DNA of 64,000 nucleotides from an uncultured Flavobacteriales bacterium (GTDB lineage: Bacteria; Bacteroidota; Bacteroidia; Flavobacteriales_D; JABDKJ01). Positions within the stretch are counted from its first letter, which is position 1. Every line of letters begins with the position of its first letter. Made by a program: the position numbers and the translations under genes. A model generated the notes under the pieces. It had not been told where the DNA came from and did not search any database. It was given only the letters and a program-made list of their open reading frames with translations. The stretch covers positions 16,394 to 80,393 of the forward strand of contig CAZSQZ010000009.1 of the NCBI GenBank assembly GCA_964609215.1, read 5' to 3'. Below are positions 35,199 to 35,312 of the stretch, one piece after another.

Positions 35199-35312
35199 CG
35201 GAGAACAAAGGAATTGCTGCGCAGATCGCTGCGCTCAGAGTTCGAACCTTCACCGCGGATATGCGGCCTCACTTAGCAGTGAGTCTAACGAACCAGTATT
35301 TACCTATTCTCC
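35199..35312 (-). ncRNA. tRNA-Ser(GCU)-like class II gene with a 28-nt insertion in the T-loop and a 6-nt anticodon loop
   Basis: GGAGAAT…CTCAC-TGCTAA-GTGAG / variable arm GCCGC-atatcc-GCGGT / GAAGG-TTCGAA[28 nt containing GCGCAG-cgat-CTGCGC]T-CCTTT / GTTCTCC / G. T-stem strands at 35247-51 and 35207-11. Confidence 0.45.

Follow-up and report, generated by a model that had tools for sequence, protein, structure and literature searches.

The window analysed here, 64,000 nucleotides of an uncultured Flavobacteriales bacterium (assembly GCA_964609215.1, contig CAZSQZ010000009.1, positions 16,394 to 80,393), contains on its minus strand a tRNA array in which a tRNA-Ser(GCU)-derived gene (35199-35312, termed element B) is interrupted in its T-loop by 28 bp. 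We interpret element B as a redundant tRNA-Ser(GCU) gene that was disrupted by a small, loop-targeting mobile insert spreading as DNA, and that is now decaying; the probability of this reading is estimated at about 0.6. Most probably, element B is a pseudogene, and any transcript made from it would fail to function as a tRNA.

The body of element B is that of a class II tRNA with the discriminator base G73 and without an encoded CCA. Read on the minus strand from position 35312, it starts with the acceptor 5' strand GGAGAAT followed by AG, and continues with the D-arm (GTAA-ATACTGGTTCG-TTAG, next base A), the anticodon arm, a long variable arm (GCCGC-ATATCC-GCGGT), the T-stem 5' strand GAAGG, TTCG, the insert AACTCTGAGCGCAGCGATCTGCGCAGCA, ATT and the T-stem 3' strand CCTTT; the acceptor 3' strand GTTCTCC and G73 form the end. 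The acceptor stem (GGAGAAT/GTTCTCC) comprises 7 bp with one U7-G66 wobble, the T-stem (GAAGG/CCTTT) comprises 5 bp with one G-U pair, and the T-loop has 35 nt instead of 7, owing to the 28-nt insert. An initial annotation of this DNA had described the T-stem, the acceptor stem, a 6-bp hairpin, the long variable arm and a 6-nt anticodon loop, and all of these are present in the sequence. Outside the insert, 81 of 86 aligned bases (94% identity) match an intact tRNA-Ser(GCU) gene in the related locus L067 (6909-6996; related loci are designated by L numbers), and the whole gene could be aligned with seven orthologs, i.e. five closer ones and two Chryseolinea genes. Judged from the sequence, the resemblance of element B to tRNA-Ser(GCU) is far beyond chance. 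Weak matches to 'Plastid' entries in Rfam were reverse complements of tRNAs, and a plastid or mitochondrial origin was dropped.

The tRNA-Ser(GCU) gene of L067 is uninterrupted (T-loop TTCGATT, anticodon loop CTGCTAA), and intact genes are also found in four further arrays, among them those of L093, L095 and L097. When AACTCTGAGCGCAGCGATCTGCGCAGCA is taken out of element B, the orthologous T-loop TTCGATT is regained exactly. Because repeated A's flank the insert on both sides, its edges are ambiguous by 1-2 nt, and the site is given as 57/58 to 59/60. The insert hairpin includes GCGCAGC, a variant of the GCGAAGC motif of other members of the family described below. As the initial annotation had stated, the insertion point is common to element B and to the interrupted tRNA-Pro gene at 34842-34962, within 1-2 bases, and the two inserts (28 nt and 50 nt) differ in sequence, with a pairwise score below the reporting cut-off. 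The same annotation had argued against random decay; this view is borne out by orthologous genes that lack the insert and by homologous inserts at the same T-loop position in other tRNAs.

Chance decay of, or an assembly error in, an ordinary tRNA gene is an extremely improbable explanation. Point lesions are indeed borne by element B; against this, an independent Logan assembly (L066) agrees with the window at 100% identity across 2843 bases, element B included, and the window is also identical to a Joint Genome Institute (JGI) metagenome contig, so that the insert is not an assembly artefact. Furthermore, other tRNAs and other genomes bear members of the 28-mer family at the same position, and an 18-nt motif of the family occurred in none of 100 shuffles of the window. 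On the strength of the identical assemblies, the recurring 28-mers and the shuffle tests, this explanation was refuted.

The insert of element B belongs to a family of hairpin-forming inserts, termed F1, with short (28-34 bp) and long (50-52 bp) forms. The short 28-mers occupy the same T-loop position in tRNA-Cys (L067, 7058-7085) and tRNA-Phe (L067, 7870-7897), and another one (L096, 6985-7012) is located at this position in a tRNA-Ser(GCU) gene, inside a composite T-loop insert of ~85 nt with a duplicated GGTTCGA. The long copies, of 50-52 bases, reside in the anticodon loops of tRNA-Ser(UGA), tRNA-Tyr and tRNA-Glu. Similarity tested against shuffles indicated homology among three 28-mers, and between these and the long anticodon-loop inserts. 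The long copies are bounded by AACT...AGTT and have a hairpin at their centre; the short copies have a single hairpin. Every copy has the junction T-N-G/AACT (the slash marks the insertion boundary), with the conserved 5' motif T-N-G/AACT..GAGC..AGCGA. A possible target duplication at F1 sites would be 0-2 nt (A or AA), indistinguishable from the junction ambiguity. In total, homologous F1 copies were found at no fewer than eight sites (>=8) in at least six (>=6) genomes or metagenome contigs. For copies that can be compared with an intact ortholog or a parent tRNA, excision recreates the empty-site loop, without any difference in Ser-GCU, Phe, Glu, Ser-UGA and the tRNA-Gly units described below, and with a one-base difference in Cys.

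Other members show that the family is neither confined to one tRNA nor to one orientation. The 51-nt insert of the window tRNA-Ser(UGA) gene (element C) is shared with L067 (6802-6852), and the intact form of this gene is found in L093 (6713-6800). The copy in the tRNA-Glu(UUC) remnant, whose intact ortholog is located at 7492-7564 of L067, is reversed: it scored 32 against the tRNA-Ser(UGA) copy in reversed and 17 in forward orientation, a score of 32 was reached in 0 of 500 shuffles, and nhmmer places it on the plus strand of the window, opposite to its host gene. All other copies are forward, so F1 occurs in both orientations. A full-length forward copy is present in the anticodon loop of the L097 tRNA-Tyr. 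Truncated and composite copies exist as well, i.e. an F1 remnant adjoining tRNA-Cys in L095 (6573-6605) and the ~85-nt insert of L096.

A 34-nt F1 copy was also found in 137-nt tandem units located 3' of tRNA-Gly(GCC) in unrelated metagenome contigs. These units (L084, 446-866; L087-L091) each carry a tRNA 3' end, a strong hairpin and, in addition, an extended T-arm-like hairpin that bears the F1-like 34-mer after TTCG; the predicted fold has z = -6.4, and no Rfam match was found. The genes flanking the tRNA-Gly units are ordinary chromosomal genes (glycerol-3-phosphate dehydrogenase, capsule genes).

A second, distinct family, termed F2, is represented by the 50-bp insert of tRNA-Pro(UGG), with the junction TTCG/AAATG..CATTCACGAAC. 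ARAGORN calls this tRNA-Pro only after deletion of the 50 nt. Relatives of F2 were found in two tRNAs of a Kordia genome (L094), at the same T-loop position. The Kordia locus also contains, at 8276-8401, a suppressor-like tRNA with a T-loop insert and an anticodon that by eye is apparently UCA.

The arrays of the window and of L067 are syntenic and align end to end; the adjacent RNA ligase is 88% identical, and within the tRNA genes about 7% of aligned bases differ. The window-L067 alignment contains five precise insertions, all of them in tRNA loops, with none in stems and none in spacers: +28 in the window in the T-loop of Ser-GCU, +28 in L067 in the T-loops of Cys and of Phe (both intact in the window), +50 in the window in the T-loop of Pro, and +52 in the window in the anticodon loop of Glu. 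Presence and absence are exact at the orthologous Ser-GCU, Cys, Phe and Glu sites. One entire tRNA is found in the L067 array and not in that of the window. A suppressor-like tRNA with the anticodon UUA (for the UAA stop codon), absent from the window, is located at 7655-7728 of L067.

Element B carries two further lesions: its anticodon loop is short of one C, and its D-stem contains a G10·G25 mismatch; both are derived and absent from all orthologs. The anticodon loop is thus TGCTAA, 6 nt long, in place of a 7-nt loop with U33 and the anticodon GCU. The 6-nt loop had been reported in the initial annotation as a feature of the element; the loop is there, though as a lesion rather than a design feature, namely a 1-nt deletion from a loop that has 7 nt in 7 of 7 orthologs. 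Taken together, the two derived lesions point to loss of function and do not sustain the reading, implied in the initial annotation, of element B as a processed element. Element B is not called as a tRNA by ARAGORN or by Rfam, even with Rfam at E<=10. In a brute-force scan, no single deletion of 5-89 nt gave an ARAGORN call of element B, because of the second lesion, the lost anticodon-loop C; ARAGORN calls tRNA-Ser(gct) once the 28 bases are removed and this C is put back. Extended over all loci, the deletion scan revealed only three new interrupted genes, and it is noisy in that ARAGORN draws on downstream sequence to call intact tRNAs a second time. Damage is likewise seen in the three remaining insert-bearing tRNAs of the window: tRNA-Ser(UGA) has two anticodon-stem mismatches (ACGAC vs ACCGT), the tRNA-Glu remnant has a 3-nt T-loop deletion that leaves a 4-nt T-loop (GGGG-TTCT-CCCC), and tRNA-Pro has acceptor-stem mismatches.

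From these data the following course of events is proposed. Element B is a tRNA-Ser(GCU) copy in an accessory array, and an F1 28-bp copy has interrupted its T-loop between G57/A58 and N59. F1 would spread as DNA, as the reversed tRNA-Glu copy suggests. Recognition of hairpin loops in single-stranded DNA is a plausible mechanism; its enzyme would be encoded elsewhere than within 18 kb on either side. The insertion would disable the tRNA and be tolerated because of the redundancy of the array with the housekeeping tRNAs, and element B would then have drifted, losing one anticodon-loop base and gaining the D-stem mismatch.

Several observations weigh against this proposal. Two host genes are otherwise intact despite their insert, i.e. 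the L067 tRNA-Phe, whose acceptor stem has a compensatory change relative to the window, and the L096 tRNA-Ser(GCU), which encodes CCA. Insert-bearing genes do not diverge significantly faster than intact ones (8.0% vs 6.4% divergence, p = 0.39), so relaxed constraint is not significant. No F1 copy outside tRNA loops was detected, either in the window or by a hidden Markov model (HMM) of the long form across ~1 Mb of related loci, and in domain scans the 18 kb to each side yielded no gene for a transposase, an integrase or a reverse transcriptase; F1 thus shows neither a cognate transposase nor copies dispersed outside the arrays over the window and the ~1 Mb of loci. About 2000 TNGA sites are expected in the window, and therefore the 4-nt motif alone is insufficient to explain F1 targeting. 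The T-loop copies of F1 and F2 are all in tRNA polarity (8 of 8), though the TNG/A site occurs on both strands; an orientation-neutral process would give this outcome in ~1 of 256 cases. Finally, the adjacent genes encode precisely the ligases needed by a splicing pathway. In the intact array of L093, 12 TNG/A sites are found on the tRNA strand and 13 on the other strand, and in an intact array only 59% of the T-N-G/A sites lie within T-loops or anticodon loops.

Several of these points are also those that speak for an intron-like element, a reading that we consider unlikely. Here, the insert would be transcribed and excised at its single-stranded junctions by a putative endoribonuclease, RtcB or the PF09414 ligase would rejoin the halves, RlaP may repair the ends, and the element would still spread as DNA in the manner of mobile introns. 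RtcB, two RlaP genes and the RNA ligase flank the array in every related locus, and the insertions are confined to two exposed loops of the folded tRNA; given the repeated-A ambiguity, the anticodon-loop copies fit position 37/38. The exclusively sense T-loop copies, the otherwise intact host genes, the unremarkable divergence of insert-bearing genes and the lack of transposase, integrase and reverse transcriptase genes nearby count in the same direction. T-loop introns, with related introns at different sites, are known from archaeal Thermoproteales. Of the ligation step, the predicted RtcB at 38641-40026 would be an RNA ligase for 2',3'-cyclic-phosphate and 5'-OH ends.

The predicted structures of the RNA also bear on excision. 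One layout is common to the T-arms with the three 28-mers (T-stem, UUCGAA, a 24-nt hairpin, five unpaired nt, T-stem), which counts for the intron-like element; the 24-nt hairpin is closed by C1-G24 and U2-A23, and a 6-nt by 5-nt internal loop separates it from the T-stem. No bulge-helix-bulge (BHB) motif, i.e. 3-nt bulges separated by a 4-bp helix, is formed in the predicted folds of the three insert-bearing T-arms, which argues against the intron-like reading. Likewise, no splicing endonuclease was predicted in Pfam and NCBIfam scans of ~40 open reading frames (ORFs) of the window, and no EndA-like or other nuclease was found nearby; the uncharacterised protein encoded between rtcB and rlaP was modelled with confidence as an alpha-helical repeat (predicted local distance difference test, pLDDT, 90), with no likeness to any nuclease fold. 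The reversed F1 member would not be expected of an intron, and after excision element B would still keep its 6-nt anticodon loop and D-stem mismatch, so that the ARAGORN call fails. Extra lesions in 4 of 4 insert-bearing window genes, and the occurrence of inserts only in dispensable array genes, also speak against it. Literature searches returned no description of T-loop inserts in bacterial tRNA genes, or of such splicing of them. The claim implied in the initial annotation, that both inserts are processed in an intron-like manner, is therefore unsupported, given the reversed member, the lack of a BHB motif and the lack of an endonuclease candidate. A wider form of the idea, protein-dependent tRNA splicing in this lineage, in which mobile mini-introns would be cut by an unrecognised endonuclease and resealed by RtcB/Rnl, with RlaP trimming or filling the ends and with reversed or lesioned copies as dead members, is regarded as doubtful. 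Two ribozyme candidates were rejected: a group I intron, for which the 28-nt insert compares with a catalytic core (P3-P9) of >200 nt and for which no Rfam intron match was found, and a hammerhead or other small ribozyme, for which there was neither a matching core nor an Rfam match. No Rfam family matched the insert.

A further alternative is that the hairpin is retained in a mature RNA that is tRNA-like rather than a decoder; this we judge quite improbable. By analogy with tRNA-like Y RNAs, such an RNA might act as a sponge or decoy for toxins that cleave tRNAs, or else serve the RtcB/RlaP/WYL system as a partner or sensor. In T-loop motifs of other RNAs, the site after A58 is the one that best tolerates an added helix. 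The predicted fold of element B preserves the acceptor stem, the anticodon arm, the variable arm and the insert hairpin (z = -2.6), and downstream of the ligase gene the locus has further conserved modules that are tRNA-like and bear large inserts, one of them with a weak match to YrlA. That array tRNAs may serve as sponges for toxin RNases has been proposed (PMC8421152), which also counts in favour. On the other side, close relatives differ in whether a given tRNA carries the insert, which thus is no conserved feature of one RNA; the internal pairing register differs among copies, as seen for the inner pairs of the predicted 28-mer folds; a reversed copy exists; and no Rsr/Ro gene was seen in the window by protein domain scans.

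Element B is set in a dense accessory array beside rtcB, in which 12 tRNA positions, eight intact and the others interrupted, share one strand over 1.2 kb (Table 1); the array comprises co-oriented genes and pseudogenes. In cyanobacteria, accessory tRNA arrays with linkage to rtcB have been described (PMC8421152). The related arrays undergo rapid turnover, with badly degraded tRNA genes in L095 and L097. In L095 (6209-6899), there are a degraded tRNA-Tyr with ~90 nt of foreign sequence and a tRNA-Ser-UGA-like gene that lacks most of its D-arm, and in L097 (6830-6905) there is a tRNA-Asp-like remnant.

Table 1. Features of the tRNA array and of the adjacent RNA-repair genes in the window
Feature	Position	Strand	Basis or remark
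Element B, tRNA-Ser(GCU)-derived gene, T-loop interrupted	35199..35312	-	sequence reading and ortholog alignment
28-bp insert AACTCTGAGCGCAGCGATCTGCGCAGCA, short F1 subfamily, in the T-loop between TTCG and ATT	35215..35242	-	gap vs L067 and L068
6-bp hairpin GCGCAG-CGAT-CTGCGC within the insert	35219..35234	-	sequence and predicted fold
Anticodon arm CTCAC-TGCTAA-GTGAG, 6-nt loop	35268..35283	-	1-nt deletion; 7-nt loop in 7/7 orthologs
D-stem lesion, G at position 25 giving a G10·G25 mismatch	35285	-	C in every aligned ortholog
Element C, tRNA-Ser(UGA), 51-bp long F1 forward at 35369-35419 in the anticodon loop	35318..35455	-	nhmmer matches; intact ortholog
tRNA-Pro(UGG), 50-bp F2 insert at 34858-34907, same T-loop position	34842..34962	-	intact ortholog L067 7259-7331
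tRNA-Glu(UUC) remnant, 52-bp long F1 reversed at 34596-34647 in the anticodon loop	34560..34680	-	intact ortholog L067 7492-7564
Eight intact array tRNAs: Cys, Tyr, Gln, Leu-TAG, Leu-TAA, His, Phe, Arg-ACG	34243..35192	-	ARAGORN and Rfam
Small ATP-dependent RNA ligase, PF09414, 212 aa, directly downstream of the array	33578..34216	-	domain scans
Leader: 39-codon ORF (start ~35646) and intrinsic-terminator-like hairpin (~35465-35500)	35465..35670	-	sequence
RNA-repair operon upstream of the array	36137..40026	-	Pfam and NCBIfam scans
RlaP-like protein	36137-37207	-	Pfam and NCBIfam scans
RlaP	37204-37950	-	Pfam and NCBIfam scans
Uncharacterised protein between rtcB and rlaP	37962-38696	-	no Pfam or NCBIfam match
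RtcB	38641-40026	-	Pfam E = 1.6e-35
Divergent WYL/WCX regulator	40091-41140	+	Pfam and NCBIfam scans

The genes of the cassette are arranged in the order WYL/WCX regulator, RtcB, uncharacterised protein, RlaP, RlaP-like protein, terminator, array and RNA ligase, and the same gene order is found in L067, L092, L093, L095 and L096. The surrounding window represents ordinary Bacteroidota chromosome (UvrA, Rho, MurC-like, Ddl, TruA, and proteins with Por secretion tails), from a marine bacterium with Flavobacteriales as its closest relatives at the protein level. Damaged 3' ends of RNA are extended by RlaP enzymes, by one or two nucleotides (bioRxiv 10.64898/2025.12.29.696909). A Cys cluster and a D-x-K-H-F-L-P-R motif are conserved in the uncharacterised protein encoded between rtcB and rlaP, and its named homologs are all from Flavobacteriaceae.

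Ahead of the array, the leader ORF, which the ORF list gives as 35527-35670 from an upstream TTG, has 39-42 codons (M-x-x-x-L-x-H-I...) and starts 190-200 nt ahead of the first array tRNA; it is found at the same position in the window, L067, L092, L093, L095 and L096. A conserved terminator-like hairpin (AAGCACCTCC...GAGGTGCTTTTTTT) is located ~42 nt before the first tRNA in five of six loci (it was not found in L092). As far as the sequence can suggest, the ORF and the hairpin may represent a leader peptide or an attenuator through which the array is regulated. A scan for sigma-70 promoters gave matches no commoner than in shuffled sequence; this consensus differs from Bacteroidota promoters.

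Downstream of the ligase gene, ~1 kb of non-coding sequence (32552-33577, minus strand) contains three T-arm-like hairpins and D-arm-like modules, with counterparts at about 8660-9680 of L067 and at 9011-9108 of L097; it sits in a block that, ligase gene included, is ~83% identical overall between the window and L067. The weak Rfam match to YrlA (Y RNA-like) mentioned above lies in this stretch, at 32923-33013 (28.6 bits vs a threshold of 69), together with a partial tRNA match. With introns allowed, ARAGORN calls a tRNA-like gene with a 110-nt insert at ~33193-33394, and makes the same call in L067.

Most of the nearest relatives of the 212-aa ligase, at 78-84% identity, come from phage-like marine contigs (L069, L070, L072-L080) with portal, protease, methyltransferase and integrase genes, on which a tRNA array is absent. 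This distribution of homologous sequences suggests that the ligase has been exchanged between phages and these bacterial islands. Among 64 genome-collection loci anchored on the RNA ligase, most have no tRNA nearby. A phage collection searched with the array contained single ordinary tRNAs only, and a plasmid collection searched with RlaP gave a Hymenobacter plasmid with RlaP on which tRNAs are absent. Matches to the F1 and F2 motifs in viral contigs, all in coding sequence only, were dismissed as chance. Within the 64-kb window, no F1 motif was found outside the array.

Among known systems, F1 resembles miniature inverted-repeat transposable elements (MITEs), repetitive extragenic palindromes (REP) with their associated RAYT transposases, and derivatives of IS200/IS605, in that it is tens of bases long, hairpin-forming and non-coding, with multiple homologous copies, precise presence and absence, and both orientations; like IS200/IS605, it inserts beside a fixed target of a few bases, which is duplicated little if at all. 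It differs from these elements in that the short form is smaller (28 bp), in its restriction to tRNA loops rather than a dispersed distribution, in the strong sense bias of its T-loop copies, and in that no cognate transposase was identified. Archaeal non-canonical tRNA introns (Thermoproteales; also the red alga Cyanidioschyzon merolae) are likewise short loop inserts, including in the T-loop, with an RtcB-type ligase available, and with related inserts at different sites and in different tRNAs whose presence varies between relatives; for the archaeal introns, 'intron transposition' has been proposed. In contrast to these, F1 has a bacterial host, no BHB, no EndA homolog found near the locus and one antisense copy, and it has a conserved 5' motif and is seen only in accessory-array genes, several of them decaying. 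Group I introns of bacterial tRNA anticodon loops are also mobile and interrupt bacterial tRNA genes; they differ as self-splicing ribozymes of >200 nt that are found in the anticodon loop only, and a 28-nt insert cannot form their catalytic core. The array itself is like those of cyanobacteria (PMC8421152), with dense co-oriented accessory tRNAs, pseudogenes, frequent insertions, duplications and deletions, and linkage to rtcB and RNA processing; in contrast, it is short (12 positions), located within an RtcB-RlaP-Rnl cassette, and from a member of the Bacteroidota. Term searches within PMC8421152 gave no report of loop-specific inserts, and literature searches yielded no prior description of a family like F1, with its tiny size, fixed junction and limitation to the tRNA loops of repair-linked arrays.

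Were tRNA splicing nevertheless to operate here, bacteria would for the first time be seen to splice tRNAs in a protein-dependent way, and this would provide a natural substrate for the bacterial RtcB/RlaP cassettes, whose physiological targets remain debated. If element B instead is a redundant gene disrupted by a mobile insert, as we favour, F1 would stand out among mobile inserts both for its small size (28-52 bp) and for its choice of target, the T-loops and anticodon loops of tRNA genes in repair-linked arrays. This would explain why standard tRNA detectors overlook a third of the genes in such arrays, would show the speed of array turnover, and would point to an enzyme, acting on DNA or RNA, that recognises tRNA-shaped hairpin loops.

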